62,723 bases of DNA from Candidatus Kuenenia stuttgartensis (GTDB taxonomy: Bacteria > Planctomycetota > Planctomycetia > Pirellulales > UBA1268). Under the pieces are notes generated by a model that made no database searches, was not told the origin of the DNA, and saw only the letters and a list, made by a program, of their open reading frames with translations. The stretch is taken from the NCBI GenBank assembly GCA_945890755.1, contig CAMDDA010000002.1, forward strand, positions 1 through 62,723, in the 5' to 3' direction. Below, piece after piece: positions 6,334 to 16,583 of the stretch (its first letter is position 1; the number at the start of each line of letters is the position of its first letter). Both the position numbers and the translations under genes were made by a program.

Positions 6334-9123
6334 TCAGTAAGTCTTCCCGAGGGCAGCCTGGGCGGCGGCGAGACGGGCGACCGGGAGGCGGAACGGCGAG
6401 CAGCTCACGTAGTCGAGGCCCACGTGGTGGCAGAACACCACCGAGTGGGGATCGCCGCCGTGTTCGCCGCAGATGCCGAGCTTGATGTCCTTCCGGGTCT
6501 TGCGGCCCTTCTCGACCGCGACCTCCATCAGCTGTCCCACGCCCGAAACGTCGATCGAGGCGAAAGGATTCGCCTTGAAGATGCCGGCGTCGGTGTAGGT
6601 CTGTAGGAACGAGCCCATGTCGTCGCGGCTCATGCCGAGGCAGGTCTGGGTGAGGTCGTTGGTGCCGAACGAGAAGAACTCGGCCGTCTCGGCGATCTCG
6701 TCGGCCGTGAGGGCGCCGCGCGGGATCTCGATCATCGTGCCGACCAAATACTTGATCTTCTGGCCTGTCTCCTTCTGCACCTTCTCCGCCACGGCGTGCA
6801 CGATCTCCACCTGGTTGTCGAGCTCCTTCTTGAAGCCGACGAGCGGGATCATGATTTCCGGCTTCACCTTGATGCCGGCCTTCTGCACCTTGGCCGCAGC
6901 CTCGAACACGGCCCGGGCCTGCATCTCCGAGATCTCGGGATAGCTGATGCCAAGGCGGCAGCCGCGGTGGCCGAGCATCGGGTTGAACTCGTGCAGGGCG
7001 TGCACGCGGGCCTTCACCGTCTCGACGGGCAGCTTGAGCTTCTTGGCGAGGTCGGCCTGGGCCTTCTCGTCGTGCGGCACGAATTCGTGCAGCGGCGGAT
7101 CGAGGAAGCGGATCGTGGCGGGCCGGCCGTCGAGAGCCTTGAAGATGCCCTCGAAGTCGTCCCGCTGGTAGGGGAGCAGCTTGGCGAGCGCCTCGCGGCG
7201 GGCCTCCTCGTTCTCGGCGAGGATCATCTCCCGCATCGCGTCGATGCGGTCACCCTCGAAGAACATATGCTCCGTCCGCGTGAGGCCGATGCCCTCGGCG
7301 CCGAAGGCGATCGCGTGCCGCACCTGCTCGGGGGTGTCGGCGTTGGTGCGGATGCCCAGCTTCCGGTGCTTGTCGGCGAGCTTCATGATGAAGTCGTAGT
7401 ACTGGAAGACCTCGGAGTCGGCCGGCTTCATCGTCTTGGCGATGAGCACCTGCTTGAGCTCGCTGTCGGCCGTCTTGATCCCGCCGGCGAACACCTCGCC
7501 CGTCGAGCCGTTGATGGAGATCGCGTCGCCTTCCTTGAGCGTCTTGCCGGCACACTTGAGCGTGCCCTTCGCATAGTCGATCTGGATCGCACCGGCCCCG
7601 GCCACGCAGACCTTGCCCATCTGTCGCGCCACGAGGGCCGCATGGCTCGACACACCGCCGCGGCTCGTGAGGATGCCCTCGGCGGCGATCATGCCGCGGA
7701 GATCCTCGGGGCTCGTCTCGACGCGGGCGAGCACCACCTTCACCCCCTTGTTGGCCAGTTCCTCTGCCTTCACGGCGGTGAACACGAGCTGCCCGGTGGC
7801 GGCGCCGGGGCCGGCCGGTAGGCCGGTCGTCAGGCCGCGGCCCGCCTTCTTGGCGGCCTCGTAGTCGGCCCGATCGAAGATCGGAGCCAGGAGCTGCGAG
7901 AGGGCGTCGGGATCGGCCGACTGGATCGCGTGCTCCGGCGACATGAGCTTCTGCTTCACCATGTCGTGGGCGATCTTGACGTAGGCGAGCGCCGTCCGCT
8001 TCCCGTGCCGCGTCTGCAGCATGTAGAGCTTCTTCTTCTCGACCGTGAACTCGAAGTCCTGCACGTCGCCGAACTTCTTCTCCAGCGTCTGGCGGACCTT
8101 CTCCAGCTCCTTGTAGGTGCTGGCGAACATCGCCTCGTGCTTCATCTCGGCAACGGGCTTGGGCGTCCGCACGCCGGCCACGACGTCTTCTCCCTGGGCG
8201 TTGACGAGATACTCGCCGTAGAAGACGTCTTCACCGGTGGCGGGGTCGCGGGTAAAGGCCACGCCGGTGGCGCAGTCGTCGCCCATATTGCCGAACACCA
8301 TGCTCTGCACGTTCACGGCCGTGCCCCATTCGTCGGGGATCTTGTACTTGCGGCGGTAGAGGATCGCACGCTCGTTCATCCAGCTGCCGAACACCGCCCC
8401 CACGGCGCCCATGAGTTGCTCGAAGGGGTCCTGCGGGAAGCCCTTGCCGGTCCGCTCCTTGATCAGCTTGAGGTACCGCTTGATCAGCTCGCGGAGGTGC
8501 TCTTCGCCGAGGTCGGTGTCGTCATGGATACCGAGCTGGTGCTTCAGCCCCTCCATCGTCTCCTCGAAGGGATCGTGCTCGTTCTCGTGCCGCTTCTGCA
8601 CGCCCATCACCACGTCTCCATACATCTGGATGAAGCGGCGGTAGGAGTCGTAGGCGAACCGGGGATTGCCGGTGGCCGCGGCCAGCCCCTTCACCGTCTC
8701 GTCGTTGAGGCCGAGGTTCAGGATCGTGTCCATCATGCCCGGCATGCTGTCGCGGGCACCGGACCGGACACTCACGAGCAGGGCATTCTTCGGATCGCCG
8801 AACTTTTTCCCCGTTTCCTTCTCCATGAGCCTCATGGCGGAGGCGACCTCGTCCTCGAGGCCCTTGGGGAACTTCTTGCCGTGCGCGTAGTAGTCGATGC
8901 AGACCTGGGTCGTGATCGTGAAGCCAGGGGGCACGGGCAGGCCGATCTTCGTCATCTGCGCGAGGTTGGCCCCCTTGCCGCCGAGGAGCGACTTCATCGT
9001 GCCGTCACCGTCGCACTTCTTGGCCCCGAAGTAGTAGATCATCCGCCCGGCCTTGCCCCCGGCACCTCCCGACTTCGAGCTGGCTTTGCTGGCGGCGGAC
9101 TTCGTGCGGGTCGTGGTGGCCAT
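6334..9123 (-). CDS. ppdK: pyruvate, phosphate dikinase
   Basis: Full-length PPDK signature: YYFG...[12 protein letters not shown], phospho-His region [16 protein letters not shown]-terminal ...[10 protein letters not shown]. The N-terminal 27 aa are low-complexity Ser/Lys/Ala, so the alternative start at 9042 (MIYYFG) is possible. Confidence 0.95.
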
Positions 9124-9365
9124 GAGGGGGACGATACCTTTCGAAAGAGGAACGGGAAGGGGCGGGTTTTCTGCGGGAAACCAGCCAGAATCTACGTTCG
9201 CGGCCGGAGGGCGTCAACGACGCCGGGCGGTGGGAACTTCGGCGGGAAAAGTCGGAAAAACTGGCCCCGACGCGGCCAGCTCCTTCTGGTACACCCTCCC
9301 GCGACGATCCATCTCAGGGGTCGGCCCCGACTTCCGGCTCTCCCCACCCTCGAGGCGTCCCCCCC

Positions 9366-9929
9366 ATGCCGCTGGCCCTGCAGATCATCGCCTGGTTCGT
9401 CGCGCTTTCGGTCGTGATGTCGATCGTCGAGCATCAGGTGCATGCCCGCATGATGCACAAGCGGCCCAAGCTCGCCTTTCTCCGCAACGTCCGGGCCCGG
9501 CAAAAGATGTTCAAGAGCCACGCCATCGAGCACCACCGGCAATACCTCAAGGAATTTCACGACGAGCCGGTGCCCCACGGGGAGGACCGCGGAATTCGGC
9601 TCAACGTCGTGGAGGGACTCGTCGAGTCGCTGCCGCTCACCCTCCTGCTCGCGCCGTTTTCATACGTCGGTGCCCTCACGTTTCCGGTCGTCGTCTGCCT
9701 CCACCACCTCACGTGGAACCTGGTGCACCTGGAGATGCACAAGCCGCGGGGCAGCTTCTTCTCGCAGTGGCCCCTCTACAAGAAGCTGGCCCAGCACCAC
9801 TTCCTGCATCACCGCCACCCCGACAAGAACTTCAACGTCTTCCTGCTCGTCGGCGACTGGCTCTTCGGCACGATGGCGACGCCCACCGCAGCCGACCTCG
9901 AGGCGATGAAGGCCCAGGGCATCGCCTGA
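9366..9929 (+). CDS. fatty acid hydroxylase / sterol desaturase superfamily membrane protein
   Basis: His boxes HQVHARMMH, HAIEHH and HHFLHHRH sit in a small membrane protein. Confidence 0.6.
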   Translation: MPLALQIIAWFVALSVVMSIVEHQVHARMMHKRPKLAFLRNVRARQKMFKSHAIEHHRQYLKEFHDEPVPHGEDRGIRLNVVEGLVESLPLTLLLAPFSYVGALTFPVVVCLHHLTWNLVHLEMHKPRGSFFSQWPLYKKLAQHHFLHHRHPDKNFNVFLLVGDWLFGTMATPTAADLEAMKAQGIA

Positions 9930-9955
9930 AACGGGGCAGGTAGCCGCTTCTATTC

Positions 9956-10006
9956 GTAGGCCCGTCACTCCGTGACGGGCAGCCCGTTGCGGAGCAACAG
10001 GCCTAC
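9956..10006 (+). repeat. REP-A double-hairpin element
   Basis: 51 nt, one mismatch to the 4381-4431 copy. It lies between convergent genes. Confidence 0.95.
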
Positions 10007-10065
10007 GGGGGCCCCTCATCAGACTCCCGATGGGTTGCCCCGAGCTCTCACCACAAGACGCCCCG

Positions 10066-11190
10066 TCAGTCGTGCTTGCCGAGCCATTCCTCGATGTACC
10101 GCCCGAGGCTGCCGTCCTCCCGCATCCGCAGGATCGCGGTGTTGAGCGGCTCGCGGAGGGGGCTGCCCGCAGGCAGGCCGAGACCGTAGTCGAACGACTC
10201 GAAGACCGGCCCCACGAGTCGGAGCGAACTGCGGCCAGCCTGCGACACGAGAAACATCAGCTGCTGGTTCTCCGAAACGACGGCCTCGATCATCCCCAGG
10301 TCGAGCGCGTCGAGCGCGGCATTGATCGAGGGAAACTCCTGCGGGATAGCCCCTCGTTGCCGCACCGCCGCGCCCGTCACCGCGGCCGCCTGCACGCCGA
10401 CGACCCGGCCGGCGAGGTCGCGCGGGCCGTGGATCGTGCCCGTCACGCGGTCGGCCGTCATCGTCGCGGTGAGCACGCTCGTGAAGGCGGCGATGAGACT
10501 GATGCCCCCGACCATCCAGGCAAAGGCGATGACCCGACCGAGCAGGCTGTCCACGTGCTTGTCGTCGCAGCCGCCGGTCATGATCGTGGACATGATCCAC
10601 CAGATCGCCTCCCCGACGCCACGCGGATAGGCCGACGGAAATGAATGGCCGTTGCGGCCGCGCTCGAACCACCACAGCAGGTGGCCCGAAATGAGGGCGA
10701 GGGAAACCACGATGCCCAGCAGCTTCAGGAGATCCCACGAGATCATCGACCGCACCGCTCCCAGGAAGCCCGTGTCGTTCCGTTGGCGGACGGCGACCCG
10801 CAATCCCGAGTGGAAGATCGAGTGGGTGAGATCGAGCACCCGCTCCCGGTCCTCGGTGATCGCGATCGGCCCGAGCACCACGTCGGCCTGGCCCGTGGTG
10901 GCGAGCGCGAGCAATCCGGGAAACGTGTCGGCGCGGATGAACGTCGTCTCGGCACCGAGCCGGCCCGCCAGATTCTCCCAGATGTCGATCATCACGCCGA
11001 CGGGCGCGTCGCCGCTCCAGTCCACCGCCGAGGCGATCGGCATCACGCCCACCCTGAGGTGCTGCACCTCCGCGGCCGCGGCTGCGGGCTCGGGTGCGAC
11101 CGGGGCGGGGGCGTCGGCCCAGGCGGCCGCGACGCCGCCGCCCGCCAACGCAACCGTCCACCCGATCCATCGTCTCGATCGCCGCATCAT
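10066..11190 (-). CDS. iGluR/GluR0-like chimera: family-3 solute-binding protein interrupted by a two-TM ion-channel pore
   Basis: SBP lobe 1 (LRVGVMPIASAV...ADVVLGPIAITEDRERVLDLTHS), then M1, pore helix and M2 (GVGEAIWWIMSTIMTGGCDD...LLGRVIAFAWMVGGISLIAAF), then SBP lobe 2. The filter TIMTGGCDD (nt 10561-10587) replaces the K-channel T(V/I)GYGD. ATG overlaps the upstream stop (ATGA). Confidence 0.7.
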   Translation of the reverse strand: MMRRSRRWIGWTVALAGGGVAAAWADAPAPVAPEPAAAAAEVQHLRVGVMPIASAVDWSGDAPVGVMIDIWENLAGRLGAETTFIRADTFPGLLALATTGQADVVLGPIAITEDRERVLDLTHSIFHSGLRVAVRQRNDTGFLGAVRSMISWDLLKLLGIVVSLALISGHLLWWFERGRNGHSFPSAYPRGVGEAIWWIMSTIMTGGCDDKHVDSLLGRVIAFAWMVGGISLIAAFTSVLTATMTADRVTGTIHGPRDLAGRVVGVQAAAVTGAAVRQRGAIPQEFPSINAALDALDLGMIEAVVSENQQLMFLVSQAGRSSLRLVGPVFESFDYGLGLPAGSPLREPLNTAILRMREDGSLGRYIEEWLGKHD

Positions 11191-13391
11191 GCGTCATCTC
11201 CCTTCGACGAGCCCGCGGTGTGGGCAATCCGGATCCCCACGGCGAAGAGCGCGACGCCGCACACCATGCCCATCACCGCCGCCGCCACGCCCCACGGTGG
11301 AATGCCCGTGAGGTCGGTGGTCGAGCCCCCTGCTTCGGCTGCCGCAGCCAGGGCCGCGCGGCCCCCCGCGAGGGCGACGAGCCCGAGCGGGATGCTGTTG
11401 TGCACGAGATGACAGACGATCGCCGGCAGGATGCTGTGTGTGGCCACCGTCATCGCGCCGAGGGCGATGCCGAGCGCGAATGTCTGCGGCATCCGCTCGG
11501 GCAGCAGGTGAAACAGGGCGAAACAGGCCGCCTGCGCCACGACGGCGACTGCCAGCCGCCGCAGCGACGCACCCGCACCGGCGAACGCGGCGAGCACCCA
11601 GCCGCGAAACAGGAATTCCTCGCAGACCGCGGGCACGACGGCCATCAGGCACCAGGCCAGCCAGCCCGGCCGCTCGAGCATCAGGTGGAGCAGGCGGCGG
11701 TTGAGATCCTCCGCCTCGGCCGACAGGGCGGTCCCCTTCACCGCGAGCAGCGCCGCCGCGCCGATCCCGAACAAGCCGGCGCCCACGAGTCCTGCGCCCC
11801 CCAGGCAGGCCGTCAGGGAGGCGACGTGTCTGCCCGACCCGCCGGCGCCGAGCGGCATGCCCCCGGGCCAACGGACGGAGAACGTGCGGACGAGGTTCAC
11901 CCGTTGCCACCAGACGACCAGCGCCAGCGGCCCCAGCACGGTGAGTACCTGCTGCAGCGGAATGGCCAGCGTCAGGTCGTCGGGAGTGAGTCCCTGTGCG
12001 TACCAGAGCGCCGCCAGTCCGGCGACGAGTGGCACGACACCCTCGACGACCGTGGGCCGCTCCCGGCGACTCGGCCGCGCCAAGCCCTTCGTCGCGGCGT
12101 CGGGGCCGCGGAACAGGATGTCTTCGTCGGTGAGCATCAACGCCGTCACGCCGAGCAACAGCCAGGTGAGCAACAGGGACGACACGATGGTGGCCGCCAG
12201 AGGTCCGGCCACGCCGCCGCTCGCCTCGTCGAATGCCGTGCGGGCGACCAGCACCTGGCCGGCAAAGGGCACGGCCGCCACCGGACTCGCCGCCCGCATG
12301 CCGGGAAGCAGTGCCGTGCCCGCCAGCGCGCTGACCAGGAGGATCACCGGTGTGAGCGTGTTTTGGGCCTCCTTGCCGCTCTTGGCCGCCGTCGTCACCG
12401 CCAGGCAGGTCGCCGACGCAAGGGCCGCCAATCCGGTGAACGCCGCCACGCCGACGGCCGCCGGCCAGACGACGCCGCGCGGCAGTTCGAGACTCAGCCC
12501 GGCCGGCAGATACCGACCGGCTACCGCCGCCGTGGCGCCGATCGAGGCCACGTTGACGACGAGCGTGACGAGCGTGATCGCGAACACGGCGAGAAATTTC
12601 CCGAACACGATGTCGCGGGCCGCACAGGGAGCGATGAGGAGGGTTTCGATCGTGCCGCGCTCCTTCTCGCCGGCGATCGCATCGATGGCGGGATAGAAGG
12701 CCCCGGTGAGCGTGAGCACGGCGAGCAACACGAGCACGCCCCCGGCGACGATCGGCACGATCTGCTTGGGCGCCGCGGCCGCAGCCGTCTCGCCCGGAAA
12801 CGTGAGCCGCACCGGCTCCAAGAATGCCGCCGGCACACCGGCAGCCGAGAGCCGTCGCCGGCGGGCCTCGTCGGCGACCTCGGTCATGACCGCCGTGAAC
12901 TGCTCCTGGACCCTCGCCGGCGGCGGCGGTTTCGCCGCCCAAGAGACGGGCAGTTCGACCGTCCCCGCGCCGTCGAGCAGGCGATCACAGTCCGCCGGCA
13001 CGTCCACCCACACATCCGCCTCGGCTGCGTCGAGCCTCCGCTTCGCCTCCGCGGCCGTGACCGTCTCGAGGCGGATCTGTGCCGGCCAGACGGATCGCGG
13101 ACGGCGGCGGGCCGTGGCATCGGCCGCGGTGATCCGCCGGGCGAGGGCGTCCGCACCGTCCCCGGAGAGCACCACCGCGATCCGCGCCGGGGCCCGCTCG
13201 ACCTGTATCTCGGTGGCGGCCGTGCGCAGCCCCAGCGCGGTGGAGAGCGCGAGCATGGGATACATCGCCACCGGGAGGATCAAGGTCACGACGAGCGTGC
13301 GGCGGTCGCGGACGAACTCCACGAGGTCGCGGCGGGCGATGGCCAGCGCCGCATGGAGACCACCCGGTCGGTTGCGACCTGCACCGGTCAT
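11187..13391 (-). CDS. ABC-2 type (NatB-like) transporter permease fused to a CPBP/CAAX intramembrane protease domain
   Basis: The N-terminus ...IARRDLVEFVRDRRTLVVTLILPVAMYPML is typical of ABC-2 permeases. The C-terminus carries CPBP motifs EEFLFRGW, FALFHL and HLVHN. There are ATGA overlaps at both ends. Confidence 0.75.
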   Translation of the reverse strand: MTGAGRNRPGGLHAALAIARRDLVEFVRDRRTLVVTLILPVAMYPMLALSTALGLRTAATEIQVERAPARIAVVLSGDGADALARRITAADATARRRPRSVWPAQIRLETVTAAEAKRRLDAAEADVWVDVPADCDRLLDGAGTVELPVSWAAKPPPPARVQEQFTAVMTEVADEARRRRLSAAGVPAAFLEPVRLTFPGETAAAAAPKQIVPIVAGGVLVLLAVLTLTGAFYPAIDAIAGEKERGTIETLLIAPCAARDIVFGKFLAVFAITLVTLVVNVASIGATAAVAGRYLPAGLSLELPRGVVWPAAVGVAAFTGLAALASATCLAVTTAAKSGKEAQNTLTPVILLVSALAGTALLPGMRAASPVAAVPFAGQVLVARTAFDEASGGVAGPLAATIVSSLLLTWLLLGVTALMLTDEDILFRGPDAATKGLARPSRRERPTVVEGVVPLVAGLAALWYAQGLTPDDLTLAIPLQQVLTVLGPLALVVWWQRVNLVRTFSVRWPGGMPLGAGGSGRHVASLTACLGGAGLVGAGLFGIGAAALLAVKGTALSAEAEDLNRRLLHLMLERPGWLAWCLMAVVPAVCEEFLFRGWVLAAFAGAGASLRRLAVAVVAQAACFALFHLLPERMPQTFALGIALGAMTVATHSILPAIVCHLVHNSIPLGLVALAGGRAALAAAAEAGGSTTDLTGIPPWGVAAAVMGMVCGVALFAVGIRIAHTAGSSKGDDA

Positions 13392-14149
13392 GACGACGCT
13401 CCGAGGCCCCGTGTTTCGATCACGGCGAAGAAGGCCGCCTCGAGTGTGGCCGGGCCGCCGGCCGGCGCCGCCGCGACGAGATCCTGTCGCGTGCCCGCGG
13501 CCACCACCCGGCCGCCGTGGATCACCACGAAGCGGTCGCAGCGCTGCTCGATCTCGTGCAGCCGGTGCGTGGAGAGCAGGATGGCGTGTCCCGCCGACCG
13601 GAGTTCGGCCAGCAGCTCGAGCAGGTCGCGGGCGCCCACGACGTCGAGGGCGTTGGTCGGCTCATCGAGCACGAGGGCCGGCGGACCGTGCACCAGCGCG
13701 CGGCCGAGCGACACCCGCTGTCGTTGCCCCGACGACAGCCGGCCCGCGGGCCGGTCGGCACACGACCGGAGGCCCAGCACGTCGAGTAGCTGTTCCACCC
13801 GCGCCCGGCGAGCCGCCGGTTCGAGCCCGTGCAGCCTGCCGAACGAATCGAGCACCTCCCGCGGCGTGAGCCGGTCGGGTACGCCGGTCGTCGCGGACAC
13901 ATACCCGAGCCGCTGCCGGACGCCGACGGGATCGGTGCACACGTCGCAGCCGCCGACCACGGCCGTGCCTGACGTGGGCTTGAGCAGCGTCGCGAGCACC
14001 CGCAGCGTGGTCGTCTTGCCGGCCCCATTGGCACCGAGCAGGCCCACCATCTCGCCGGCGGCGACGCCGAACGAAACACCATCGACCGCCTTCACGACAC
14101 CGCCGTCACTCGCCCGGTAGTGCTTCACGAGATCGACGACTTCGATCAC
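13388..14149 (-). CDS. ABC transporter ATP-binding protein (NatA-like)
   Basis: Walker A GANGAGKTT, signature LSSGQRQR, Walker B LVLDEPT. Confidence 0.9.
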   Translation of the reverse strand: MIEVVDLVKHYRASDGGVVKAVDGVSFGVAAGEMVGLLGANGAGKTTTLRVLATLLKPTSGTAVVGGCDVCTDPVGVRQRLGYVSATTGVPDRLTPREVLDSFGRLHGLEPAARRARVEQLLDVLGLRSCADRPAGRLSSGQRQRVSLGRALVHGPPALVLDEPTNALDVVGARDLLELLAELRSAGHAILLSTHRLHEIEQRCDRFVVIHGGRVVAAGTRQDLVAAAPAGGPATLEAAFFAVIETRGLGASS

Positions 14150-14186
14150 AGGCCGGCTCCCGGCGGTTGGTGGCCAGGGCCCGGAG

Positions 14187-14747
14187 TCACTGCTCCATGA
14201 CCTCGGCTTCCTTCGCCTTCGCGAGGTCGCCGACCTTCGTCTCGTACTTCTTCGTCAGCTCCTGCACCTCTTCCTTGCACGAGTCGCAGTCGTCCTCGGT
14301 GAGCGTGCCGTCCCCCTGCTCGGTGTCGGCCGCCTTGTTGGCGTCGCGACGGACGTTGCGGATCGCAACGCGGGCCTCCTCCGCCAGCTCCTTGATGCGG
14401 GCCGACATCTTCCGGCGGACGTCGGTCGAGAGCGCCGGAATCGTGATCCGGATCACGCGGCCGTCGCTCTGTGGATTGAAGCCGAGGTCGCTCGCCTGGA
14501 TCGCCTTTTCGATGTCCTTGATCGTGCCCGGGTCGAACGGCCGCACGACGATCTGGTTGGGCTCGGGGGCCCCCACGCTGGCCAGGGCCTTGATCGGCGT
14601 CGGCGAGCCGTAGACTTCGACCCGCAGCGAATCGACCAGGCCGGGGTTGGCCCGGCCCGTGCGAATGCCCGTCAGTTGCTGACGGAAGACATCGGCCGCC
14701 TTTTCCATCCGCTCCTCGGCATCCAGCAGTATGTCGTCGACGGGCAT
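14187..14747 (-). CDS. frr: ribosome recycling factor
   Basis: MPVDDILLDAEERMEKAADVFRQQLTGIRTGRANPGLVDSLRVEVYG...; 186 aa. The track ORF extends further 5' in an Arg/Pro-rich frame, which I rejected. Confidence 0.93.
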   Translation of the reverse strand: MPVDDILLDAEERMEKAADVFRQQLTGIRTGRANPGLVDSLRVEVYGSPTPIKALASVGAPEPNQIVVRPFDPGTIKDIEKAIQASDLGFNPQSDGRVIRITIPALSTDVRRKMSARIKELAEEARVAIRNVRRDANKAADTEQGDGTLTEDDCDSCKEEVQELTKKYETKVGDLAKAKEAEVMEQ

Positions 14748-14857
14748 CACGGCCGCTCCTGGGGTTGGCGATTCCCGCGCGGTCGAGCCGGCGGAGAATC
14801 GTCGATTGTGGCACGGGCTCGGTGCGGCGGGCAAGCAGGCGGACGGCCGCCCCTCGC

Positions 14858-15604
14858 TCACGCCCCCGCAGCAACCACTTCGGGGCTGCCGATCAGCGTG
14901 CCGATCCGGTCGCCGGCCACAGCCCGCTCGATGTTGCCATCGCGGCGGTAGTTGAAGACGAGGATCGGCATCCGGTGCTCCATGCACTGCGAGATGGCCG
15001 TCGCGTCCATCACCCGTAGGTTCTGCTCCCGGACCTGCTGATAGGAGAGCTCGCGGTAGAGCACGGCATGCGGGTTCTTCTCAGGATCGTCGGAATAGAC
15101 GCCGTCGACGCGGGTGGCCTTCATGAGGATGTCGGCGCCGAGTTCGAGGGCCCGCTGGGCCGCGGCCGTGTCGGTCGTCACGAAGGGGCTGCCTGTGCCC
15201 GCGGCGAGGATCACGATCCGACCCTTCTCGAGGTGTCGCCGCGCCCGCCGGCGGATGTAGGGCTCGGCCACGCCATCCATACGGATGGCGGTCATCAGCC
15301 GCGTCTGGGCCCCGAGGCTTTCGAGCGCATCCTGCAGGGCCAGGCCATTGATCACCGTGGCCAGCATGCCCATGTAGTGGGCGGTGGCCTCTTGGATCGC
15401 GGCATTGCCCGCCGTGAACGAGCCGCCGCGGAGGATATTCCCGCCGCCGATTACGACGGCGAGCTCGACGCCTCGGGCCACCGCCTGCACGGTCTGTCGG
15501 GCGATGTGGACGATCTCGTCCATCGAGATGCCCCGCTCGCCCTGCCGGGCGAAGCTCTCGCCAGAGAGCTTGAGGAGCACGCGCTTGTGAGGGGCCGCAG
15601 ACAT
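14858..15604 (-). CDS. pyrH: UMP kinase
   Basis: [10 protein letters not shown]..., [34 protein letters not shown]. Start ATG at 15604; an alternative ATG is at 15625. Confidence 0.93.
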
Positions 15605-15651
15605 GGCGTCACCGTACACAGTCATTGAGCGAGGCAACAACGCTGCAAACC

Positions 15652-15737
15652 GTAGGCCCGTCACTCCGTGACGGGCTGCCCACCGTAGGCCCGTCACTCC
15701 GTGACGGGCTTTGCCCGTTGCGGAGCAACGGGCCTAC
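15652..15737 (+). repeat. REP-A element, expanded to three hairpins
   Basis: Two copies of GTAGGCCCGTCACTCCGTGACGGGC followed by GCCCGTTGCGGAGCAACGGGCCTAC. It sits in the tsf-pyrH intergenic space of a co-directional operon. Confidence 0.9.
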
Positions 15738-15740
15738 ACC

Positions 15741-16583
15741 TCAACCACCCAATTTCCAATTCTCGACCGACTTCACCTCGAGGCCGGCCGACTTCGCGAG
15801 TTGGCCGACGGTCTGCTTGTCGTCCTTCACGAACGGCTGCTCGAGCAGCACGCACTGACTGAAGAAGTTTCGCAGCCGGCCCTCGATCATCTTGGCGATG
15901 ATGTTCTCCGGCTTGCCTTCGTTGCGGGCGGCCTCGGAGAGGATCTCCCGCTCCTTGTCGACCACGGCCGGATCGAGATCGGCCTTGCTGATCGCCTGCG
16001 GAGCGAGGGCCACCACGTGCATGGCGATGTCCTTGGCCACCTCGGCCGCGGTCGCGGCCGACGTGTTGCCGGCGATCTCGACGATCGCAGCCTTCGAGCC
16101 GTCGTGGTGGGCGTAGCCGCCGCACGGGGCGTCGACCCGCTTGATCCGAGACAGTTCGAACACCTCCCGCATCCGGTTGAAGAGATCGTCCTTCAGTTCG
16201 GCGAGTGTCTTGTCGGGATGGGCCTGACTCTTCTGAGACATGAGATCTGCCGGAGTCGCGGCGCCAGGCCCGAGGGCCAGCGTCTTCGCGATGTCGTTGC
16301 ACAGATCTTTGAAGTCAGGGCTACCGGCCACCGGCGGGCTTTCGCACTTGAACTCGATGATCGCACCCACGCCCTTCACCGGATCGGTGTAGACGGCGAG
16401 GCGGCCGCAGGAGGTCTCTCGGTCGGCCCGCATCGACTGGGTCTTGACGCCCTGCTTCCGCAGCCACTCAACGGCCTGCTCCGTGTTACCGCCACACTCC
16501 TGGAGGGCCTTCTTGCACTCCATCATCGGCAGTCCGGTCTTCTCGCGGAGGGCCATCACGGACCCGGCAGTGATCTCAGCCAT
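15741..16583 (-). CDS. tsf: translation elongation factor Ts
   Basis: MAEITAGSVMALREKTGLPMMECKKALQECGGNTEQAVEWLRKQG (UBA-like N-terminus). AGGAG lies 8 nt upstream of the ATG. Confidence 0.95.
   Translation of the reverse strand: MAEITAGSVMALREKTGLPMMECKKALQECGGNTEQAVEWLRKQGVKTQSMRADRETSCGRLAVYTDPVKGVGAIIEFKCESPPVAGSPDFKDLCNDIAKTLALGPGAATPADLMSQKSQAHPDKTLAELKDDLFNRMREVFELSRIKRVDAPCGGYAHHDGSKAAIVEIAGNTSAATAAEVAKDIAMHVVALAPQAISKADLDPAVVDKEREILSEAARNEGKPENIIAKMIEGRLRNFFSQCVLLEQPFVKDDKQTVGQLAKSAGLEVKSVENWKLGG

Follow-up and report, generated by a model that had tools for sequence, protein, structure and literature searches.

We analysed a stretch of 62,723 nucleotides (nt), hereafter the window, deposited as contig CAMDDA010000002.1 of the Candidatus Kuenenia stuttgartensis assembly GCA_945890755.1. 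Three adjacent genes on its minus strand encode an ATP-binding cassette (ABC) ATPase, an ABC-2 permease joined to a CPBP intramembrane protease, and a channel subunit related to ionotropic glutamate receptors (iGluRs). The open reading frames (ORFs) lie at 13388-14149 (gene 1, 253 amino acids (aa), GTG start), 11187-13391 (gene 2, 734 aa) and 10066-11190 (gene 3, 374 aa); positions are those of the window, and all features of the three genes are on the minus strand. A preliminary description of this DNA had reported that the genes are chained by ATGA overlaps, and both were seen in the ORF list and on direct reading of the DNA: one at 13388-13391 between the ATPase and permease-protease genes (...GTCATGACC...), the other at 11187-11190 between the permease-protease and channel genes (...GCATGATG...). 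At each junction, the ATG of the downstream gene shares bases with the TGA of the upstream gene. The 4-nt overlap of the ATPase and permease genes was also called in relatives (loci L001, L003, L004 and L005).

Pfam, PDB sequence matches, an AlphaFold (AF2) model and Foldseek identified gene 3 as a ligand-gated channel subunit of the GluR0 architecture. The Pfam matches were SBP_bac_3 (1e-17), Lig_chan (3e-11) and Ion_trans_2 (5e-7), all above the gathering scores, with the SBP_bac_3 match spanning residues 61-372 and split at residues 162-260 by Lig_chan/Ion_trans_2. The chain starts with a signal peptide (residues 1-27, 11110-11190), recognised by its hydrophobic N-terminus and an A-x-A site, at which it is presumably cleaved (...AAAWA/DAP). 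Ligand-binding lobe S1 (residues ~43-140, 10771-11064), placed by conservation and alignment with GluA2, contains the invariant R115. It is followed by transmembrane helix M1 (residues 152-176, 10663-10737; AF2 and hydropathy), a re-entrant pore helix (190-205) with its filter loop (206-215) at 10546-10623 (AF2, HMMER alignment and conservation), and helix M2 (residues 216-249, 10444-10545; AF2), the counterpart of eukaryotic M3, where AAFTSVLTATMTA aligned with SSYTANLAAFLTV of GluA2. Lobe S2 (residues ~250-370, 10081-10443), which includes the invariant E307, aligned with lobe 2 of 2pyy and of GlnH. An amino-terminal domain and an M4 are both lacking, and the chain ends four residues past the last S2 helix.

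The AF2 model of gene 3 had a predicted local distance difference test score (pLDDT) of 82.3, with values of ~82-92 in the inserted M1-P-M2 segment. When the model was searched with Foldseek, the 50 best PDB matches were all ligand-binding domain (LBD)-transmembrane domain (TMD) chains of AMPA receptors (E ~1e-23 to 1e-21), aligned over ~370 columns with TM-scores of up to 0.70. By sequence, the binding lobes matched best the Nostoc GluR0 ligand-binding domain (2pyy, 2e-24); GluA1/2/4 matched gene 3 at 1e-19, and the AMPA-receptor chains aligned unbroken over residues 90-369. Pfam, AF2 and Foldseek thus agreed with the iGluR/GluR0 topology that had been proposed for this gene, and the pore expected in the inserted segment appeared in the AF2 model as M1, pore helix, loop and M2, with the GluA alignment running straight through it. 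By its predicted architecture, gene 3 is a member of the prokaryotic iGluR family, not an eukaryotic-type iGluR.

In the ligand site, the S1 segment GPIAITEDRE aligned with APLTITLVRE of GluA2, and R115, E116 and E307 were invariant among 58 homologues of 59-87% identity. The S1 arginine of such receptors binds the alpha-carboxylate of the ligand (Ger et al. 2010, PLoS One 5:e12827), and E307 occupies the position of the Asp that binds the alpha-amino group in GluR0-type proteins (Nostoc GluR0 LBD, 2pyy). We infer that the channel is gated by a free alpha-amino acid and that it assembles as a tetramer. The gate region reads AFTSVLTATMTA; of the SYTANLAAF signature it keeps only a loose form, FTSVLTATM.

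The filter loop contains TIMTGGCDD, encoded at 10587-10561, where the preliminary description had placed it as a substitute for TxGYGD. The loop reads S-T-I-M-T-G-G-C-D-D and lacks the K+ signature T-x-V-G-Y-G-D. With the central 202 residues of gene 3 as query, GluA1/2/4 alone made up the 60 best matches listed (~2e-13), and HMMER paired 'wwimstimTGGCDdkhvdsllGR' of gene 3 with 'wfslgafmQ/RQGCDis-prslsGR' of GluA2. Compared with the GluA2 pore (M-Q/R-Q-G-C-D), the G-C-D core and the Asp at +4 are common to both, whereas the Q/R site is Thr and position +1 is Gly in gene 3; relatives of gene 3 have Ala or Val at the Q/R site. The acidic residue at +4 is widely conserved in iGluRs and has been tied to polyamine block and ion permeation. 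Pore residues W197, W198, G206, C208, D209, K211 and H212 were invariant in the same 58 homologues. With both pore and ligand-site residues invariant, gene 3 is more likely to have a functional pore and amino-acid site than to be just a membrane anchor, and the loop sequence suggests that the channel would conduct cations without K+ selectivity.

An exhaustive search with the channel returned 5,238 relatives, 530 of them below 1e-30. Among the best 148 family representatives, a regular-expression search of the pore loop found T-x-G-Y/F-G-D/E in 80 and G-G-C-D/E/N in 15; the GGC[D/E/N] loops were in register in the family alignment, and other loops read, for example, GGDAEK or QAEEMP. Several GGC[D/E/N] channels at 35-45% identity have the length of stand-alone proteins (~360-395 aa). 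A non-K+ prokaryotic iGluR pore is not entirely new, such pores having been catalogued in 2010. The search also brought up GluR0-type channels of 650-715 aa from other bacteria (P0145, P0158, P0185 and P0264), which carry an extra N-terminal OpuAC (glycine-betaine-type) binding domain. The K+ filter is present in three of these (P0145, P0158 and P0185), and the pore loop of P0264 is of another kind. With their two tiers, these receptors recall the layering of amino-terminal domain and LBD in eukaryotes.

Gene 2 was assigned by Pfam, NCBIfam, AF2 and Foldseek as an ABC-2 permease::CPBP protease fusion with ~14 transmembrane (TM) helices. Hydropathy and AF2 (pLDDT 79.7) place six of the helices in the permease domain (residues 1-430, 12102-13391), where TM1 and TM2 are separated by an outer domain of 160 residues (51-210, nt 12762-13241) modelled as five strands (70-76, 105-110, 127-130, 145-150 and 194-197) with flanking helices. 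In the hydropathy profile, the rest of the six TM helices is followed by ~8 more, those of the CPBP (Rce1-like) region (residues 445-727, 11211-12059; Pfam Rce1-like, 2.6e-17), which brings the total to 14. Pfam located ABC2_membrane_2 (1e-20)/ABC2_membrane_3 at residues 16-423 and Rce1-like at 577-666. With 14 helices both ends of the protein would be cytoplasmic, and a cytoplasmic tail makes fusion to the channel topologically sound.

The CPBP motifs EEFLFR (11598-11621, a span that also takes in GW), FALFH (11508-11522) and HLVHN (11397-11411) are all present, in the longer forms VCEEFLFRGW, FALFHL and CHLVHN that had been reported for this protein. The three catalytic motifs were found in essentially all of 69 homologous loci and were invariant in an alignment of 52 sequences; this conservation suggests that the protease is probably active, that is, catalytically competent. 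Over its full length gene 2 matched NCBIfam NF041647 (ABC_perm_CPBP) with 387.7 bits (E 1e-115), which does not reach the cut-off of 435, and residues 14-669 aligned with profile positions 4-631 of 636. By these profile scores, gene 2 is a relative of NF041647 with identical architecture and not an equivalog member. The permease::CPBP fusion of the preliminary description was thus found, with its motifs intact; it is not new by itself, as the end-to-end alignment with a named family means that the ABC-2::CPBP architecture was already catalogued. Foldseek returned type-V exporters with weak scores (ABCH-9C, NosY, ABCA, ABCG, TarG and CcmB), and Rce1 was not among the 50 best matches. The sole match in a profile-sequence search of the PDB was NosY, a marginal one (E 0.002), and the region of the EKERGTIETLL motif matches NosY.

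Gene 1 encodes the ATPase of an ABC transporter, comprising only a nucleotide-binding domain (Pfam ABC_tran, 1e-29), and its best NCBIfam matches were exporter ATPases of the DrrA, RbbA, GldA and NodI type. The motifs are intact, with Walker A GANGAGKT at residue 39, the signature LSSGQ at 138, LVLDEP, and the H-loop STH at 193. There is no C-terminal regulatory domain, and homologues aligned from residue 1. As judged from their domains, genes 1 and 2 are a NatAB-like ABC exporter made of two ATPases and two type-V-fold permeases, each permease carrying a CPBP protease. Calling the permease 'NatB-like', as had been done, appeared reasonable given the five-stranded outer domain and the ATPase without a regulatory domain.

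The channel has >280 close homologues, essentially all in metagenome bins of Planctomycetia / Pirellulales, and the region of the locus is present in ~20 lake or freshwater DNA runs; a look for expression data brought up no RNA run. Taking one genome per GTDB species yielded 80 channel loci, all from uncultured Planctomycetota and mostly from lakes, of which 75 had enough upstream sequence to be judged; the window proteins were compared with the 80 loci by tblastn and the gene junctions were analysed. The ATPase and permease/CPBP genes lay directly 5' of the channel in 64 of the 75 informative species genomes. The genes were separate in 48 of these linked loci; in the other 16, permease, protease and channel formed one ORF of ~1,100 aa. 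About 40 of the 48 unfused junctions overlapped by 4 nt (ATGA/GTGA) or by 1 nt (TGATG), six had gaps of 2-30 nt and two were anomalous. The same gene order and junction type in dozens of genomes is more than chance would give, and the co-occurrence in other genomes expected by the preliminary description was borne out, together with many natural in-frame fusions.

The fusions were recovered in several ways. Independent protein searches found CPBP::channel fragments on short contigs, and fusions of 1,099-1,185 aa made up ~35 of the best 120 permease homologue clusters. The full-length fusions P0122 (1,113 aa) and P0123 (1,101 aa) carry all the domains, and the channel part of P0123 is only 46% identical. 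Four contigs of the collection carry P0122, and the three of them that were listed are from different samples. In a rough neighbour-joining tree of the channel, fused forms made up the deepest branches of the linked clade as well as one large monophyletic group. We rejected the explanation that the fused ORFs are assembly artefacts, because an identical 1,113-aa P0122 stands on four contigs and the fusions form coherent clades. At locus L087 (8886-10505), the permease/CPBP frame overruns the start of the channel match, with the channel read in a different frame; a frameshift, whether genuine or introduced in assembly, seems to interrupt what is a fusion in the closest relatives, L085 and L086. 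Bins with the syntenic locus (L015, L016, L023, L028, L030, L063, L086, L091 and others) are titled 'Candidatus Kuenenia', 'Chitinophaga sp.' or 'Planctomicrobium piriforme', which are probably placeholder or wrong taxonomic labels.

On the chromosome, the three genes follow rpsB-tsf-pyrH-frr in the order ATPase, permease-protease, channel, and are followed by a convergent fatty-acid-hydroxylase-like gene and PPDK (6334-9123). No paralogues were found within the window. The stop of frr (14187, same strand) lies 35 nt 5' of the ATPase start. In a scan of 9000-15800, neither a promoter-like nor a terminator-like site turned up between frr and the ATPase gene or inside the unit; the lone terminator-like match (10647-10659), inside gene 3, is within chance expectation. 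Because frr is only 35 nt away with no promoter or terminator between, the transcription unit may begin further upstream, and on this reading of the DNA the three genes may share a transcript with the housekeeping genes pyrH and frr.

A palindrome resembling repetitive extragenic palindromic (REP) elements, CCCGTCAC-GGA-GTGACGGG, lies 87 nt 3' of the channel stop (9961-9979, no strand assigned). Its 10 copies in the window compare with 0.16 expected by chance, the 19-nt sites starting at 2490, 4386, 9961, 15657, 15690, 19732, 33211, 33245, 45185 and 45225. The copies are intergenic and often paired ~35 nt apart. The next ones upstream on the minus strand, 15657 and 15690, are between tsf and pyrH, and together with the copy at 9961 they bracket pyrH-frr-ATPase-permease-channel. 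The palindrome at 9961 is a possible end of the transcription unit, where it would act as a terminator.

Convergent to the channel gene is that of a His-rich protein of 187 aa (9366-9929, plus strand), which matched Fatty acid hydroxylase with 31.1 bits (cut-off 31). This gene is absent at the corresponding position in the relatives with downstream genes listed (L001-L005 and L094); the gene 3' of the channel there is a DinB-like gene, a sulfatase, a small unannotated ORF or PPDK. On the other side, a protein of 623-655 aa without a Pfam match is encoded directly 5' of frr in L001 (2473-4344), L003 (2465-4336), L005 (548-2515) and L093 (1622-3577). It sits between pyrH and frr in L001, L003 and L005, and L093 has no upstream pyrH call; the window does not have this protein, and pyrH adjoins frr there. 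Two extra ABC ATPase/ABC-2 permease pairs are present between frr and the ATPase of the trio in L004 (3369-7231), L005 (3247-7231) and L092 (457-4264), the second of the extra permeases having no Pfam match. From frr to PPDK, the locus thus behaves like a cassette site at which ABC-2 systems vary.

We lean towards the reading that gene 3 forms an amino-acid-gated, non-K+-selective channel for which the exporter-protease is a facultative partner, and believe this to be somewhat probable. An external amino acid would close the periplasmic clamshell and thereby open a cation pore that is not K+-selective, its loop facing the cytoplasm and being of the AMPA/kainate kind (x-G-G-C-D, acidic at +4). 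Opening would let the cell read dissolved amino acids as an electrical or ionic signal. The exporter-protease would be made from the same message at 1:1, or within the same polypeptide as the channel, the topology allowing the channel's signal-anchor to follow the cytoplasmic protease tail, and it would probably assemble with the channel, mature it or compensate for it. The partnership would be facultative, with each module working alone elsewhere. What the exporter carries, and how the modules interact physically or functionally, we can only infer. A more far-reaching proposal would have all three genes build one machine, with an amino-acid-gated channel, tetrameric as a dimer of dimers, between two dimeric exporter-proteases that serve as an iGluR 'auxiliary subunit', gating and transport/proteolysis regulating each other, and would also make GGCD-loop channels the non-K+ prokaryotic stock of the eukaryotic iGluR pore; we consider this proposal, taken whole, unlikely.

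Several observations weigh against this reading and show that the link is not obligate. The channel occurred without the exporter in 11 of the 75 genomes, six times directly after frr and five times in other contexts; these channels fall in at least four separate places of the tree, which implies repeated loss. Permease-side sampling free of channel bias consisted of three look-ups and a metagenome scan. Two of the three look-ups showed frr-ATPase-permease/CPBP-PPDK without a channel. In the scan, close permease relatives (43-57% identity) were found seven times with the channel and four times without it, the latter four having ATPase and permease/CPBP in the same frr-to-PPDK locus. None of 40 distant ABC2-CPBP loci (22-36% identity; soil, marine and other) had a channel, and every one of them that has upstream sequence had the ATPase gene directly 5'. 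The nearest outgroup channels (45%, 41% and 38% identity) were unlinked, P0124 and P0125 having no exporter gene upstream; at the P0124 locus (L008), the upstream genes, of 667 and 196 aa, show no relation to the permease-protease and the ATPase, respectively. These permease-side and outgroup results indicate that the ATPase and permease/CPBP form a widespread autonomous pair and that the channel family is autonomous too. Moreover, all of the linked genomes are related and have the syntenic order rpsB-tsf-pyrH-frr ... PPDK in common, and their co-occurrence is partly inherited for that reason. The fusions may be neutral, and the A-A-E-P signal-peptidase-like site kept at the fusion joint means that the products may be cut apart. 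Finally, we found no characterised bacterial channel with a GGCD-type pore loop in the literature.

The coupling claimed in the preliminary description stood, therefore, as a conserved overlap or fusion and did not stand as an obligate one, each partner being found alone in sister lineages. The pairing is real, ancient in the lineage, undescribed and not obligate, and the association is specific to one freshwater planctomycete lineage, the window itself stemming from an uncultured member of Pirellulales type. An idea that we dropped was that the CPBP domain cuts the channel's signal peptide at A-A-E-P: the A-A-E/D-P motif at the signal-peptide end is conserved in unfused, fused and exporter-less relatives, and thus equally where there is no exporter.

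A doubtful but substantial alternative is that the modules are neighbours without shared function, the interval between frr and PPDK being a permissive, well-expressed spot for variable membrane-transport genes. The overlaps would then have arisen by genome compaction and the fusions by loss of the stop in ATGA, tolerated through the topology and signal peptidase. Within the lineage this one locus is found in four states (with both modules, with the two fused, with just the channel or with just the exporter), as many as two more ABC ATPase/ABC-2 pairs have been inserted there, both modules are autonomous elsewhere, and the signal-peptide end is kept in fusions and exporter-less channels alike, all of which would be expected of unrelated neighbours. 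Speaking against it, ~40 species with differing flanking sequence have kept an overlap of 1 or 4 nt, and the fusions have persisted in a large clade and in deep branches (44-48% channel identity) and are abundant in independent assemblies. As the outgroups are unlinked, the channel clade also appears to have arisen along with the association. If gene 3 were instead a membrane-tethered receptor or regulator of the ABC system, with M1-P-M2 as a mere anchor, its source annotation ('polar amino acid transport system substrate-binding protein') and its fusion to an ABC permease in many genomes would be explained. We believe this to be very unlikely: few parts of the protein are as conserved as the pore helix and loop, the LBD-TMD as a whole matches AMPA receptors, and to our knowledge type-V exporters do not use SBP_bac_3 receptors. 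Annotations of this sort were judged erroneous for this topology by Ger et al. (2010, PLoS One 5:e12827).

Two further explanations accept a channel and assign the exporter a definite task. A NatAB-type pump for Na+ (or another cation) might reset the gradient after the channel opens, much like a neuronal receptor with its pump. In its favour are the JGI names of homologues ('sodium transport system permease protein' and 'ABC-type Na+ efflux pump permease'), a pore loop with the +4 Asp and no K+ filter, and an exporter that fits the NatAB description in its outer-domain topology and in having no regulatory domain on its ATPase. Yet it was through weak homology that those names were transferred. 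Among solved folds, the nearest are type-V systems for lipids or other non-ion substrates (ABCH-9C with ceramide, NosY, ABCA and ABCG), and a linearmycin-resistance pump belongs to the same outer-domain family. Such a cycle would also leave the conserved protease unexplained and the exporter is widespread without any channel; the habitat, moreover, is fresh water, where the Na+ load is small. We therefore rate an ion cycle as quite improbable. Least probable of all, in our opinion, is a peptide signal loop of an autocrine or quorum type, in which the CPBP protease and exporter would mature and export a peptide or an amino-acid derivative that the clamshell then senses. It could draw, by analogy only, on CPBP proteases that process signal or sorting peptides, such as MroQ and the myxosortases; families of the MroQ/myxosortase type were weaker NCBIfam matches, and the CPBP motifs are intact. 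There is, however, no precursor gene in the unit, the ligand-binding residues are those for free alpha-amino acids, and the channel persists without the exporter in the 11 genomes mentioned above.

A facultatively partnered amino-acid channel of this kind would matter for several reasons. Characterised bacterial relatives of iGluRs are of the K+-selective GluR0 type only. A large conserved bacterial clade that has the AMPA/kainate features of a G-C-D core and an Asp at +4 may bear on the origin of the non-selective cation pore in animal and plant receptors, and a compact subunit of 374 aa is suited to expression and structure work. A ligand-gated channel joined in one natural chain to an ABC exporter and an intramembrane protease is a new domain architecture. 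If the parts interact, they would represent a new wiring of sensing to transport and the first functional handle on the widespread ABC2-CPBP family. Lake metagenomes often contain these organisms, and the module may therefore bear on the sensing of dissolved amino acids by freshwater planctomycetes.

Of the known systems, the closest in plan is GluR0 of Synechocystis (Chen et al. 1999), which is K+-selective and has the filter T-V-G-Y-G-D. Gene 3 shares with it the signal peptide, the order S1-M1-P-M2-S2, the lack of an amino-terminal domain and of M4, and the Arg and acidic ligand residues; it differs in the loop T-G-G-C-D-D and in its coupling, or fusion, to an ABC exporter-protease. Ger et al. 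(2010, PLoS One 5:e12827) described ten prokaryotic 'Group 2' iGluRs without the K+ filter, which in their judgement stand nearer to eukaryotic iGluRs than Group 1 does. Gene 3 resembles these in topology, in the missing K+ filter and in being annotated as an ABC binding protein. Their set was cyanobacterial and proteobacterial, and the word Planctomycetes is absent from the paper; no member of Group 1 or 2 contained an ABC-transporter domain, and gene neighbourhoods were not analysed. With the AMPA receptors GluA1-4, gene 3 has in common the LBD-TMD fold, a continuous S1-M1-P-M3 alignment and an x-G-C-D loop with the +4 Asp, but it lacks their amino-terminal domain, M4 and C-terminal tail, and identity is 17-19%.

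The exporter has its own relatives. Like NF041647, gene 2 has the two domains in this order and an adjoining ABC ATPase gene; unlike that family, it scores below the cut-off, and the 40 distant members sampled have no channel gene. A survey of ABC systems in B. subtilis described the outer domains of NatB, YhaP and LnrMN as a five-stranded sheet with flanking helices, and found NatA alone to be without a regulatory domain. The six-TM ABC-2 permease of gene 2, with its outer domain between TM1 and TM2, is like those of NatAB, YhaQP and LnrLMN ('type V/VI hybrid'), and the gene 1 ATPase is like NatA in having no regulatory domain. Those systems have no CPBP domain, however, and the similarity is too low to transfer a substrate (Na+, linearmycin); no solved structure of this subgroup was among the Foldseek matches of gene 2. 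As a working analogy only, systems of the BceAB type hold an ABC transporter in a membrane complex with a signalling protein and so link transport and sensing; in those systems the ABC transporter, of another type, is joined by a histidine kinase. In the literature on CPBP/ABC fusions and planctomycete iGluRs we found no published description of a channel paired with an ABC exporter-protease, in agreement with the preliminary description, which knew of no such system. The channel plan, the pore class and the ABC-2::CPBP fusion each have known relatives, and what is new is their pairing.

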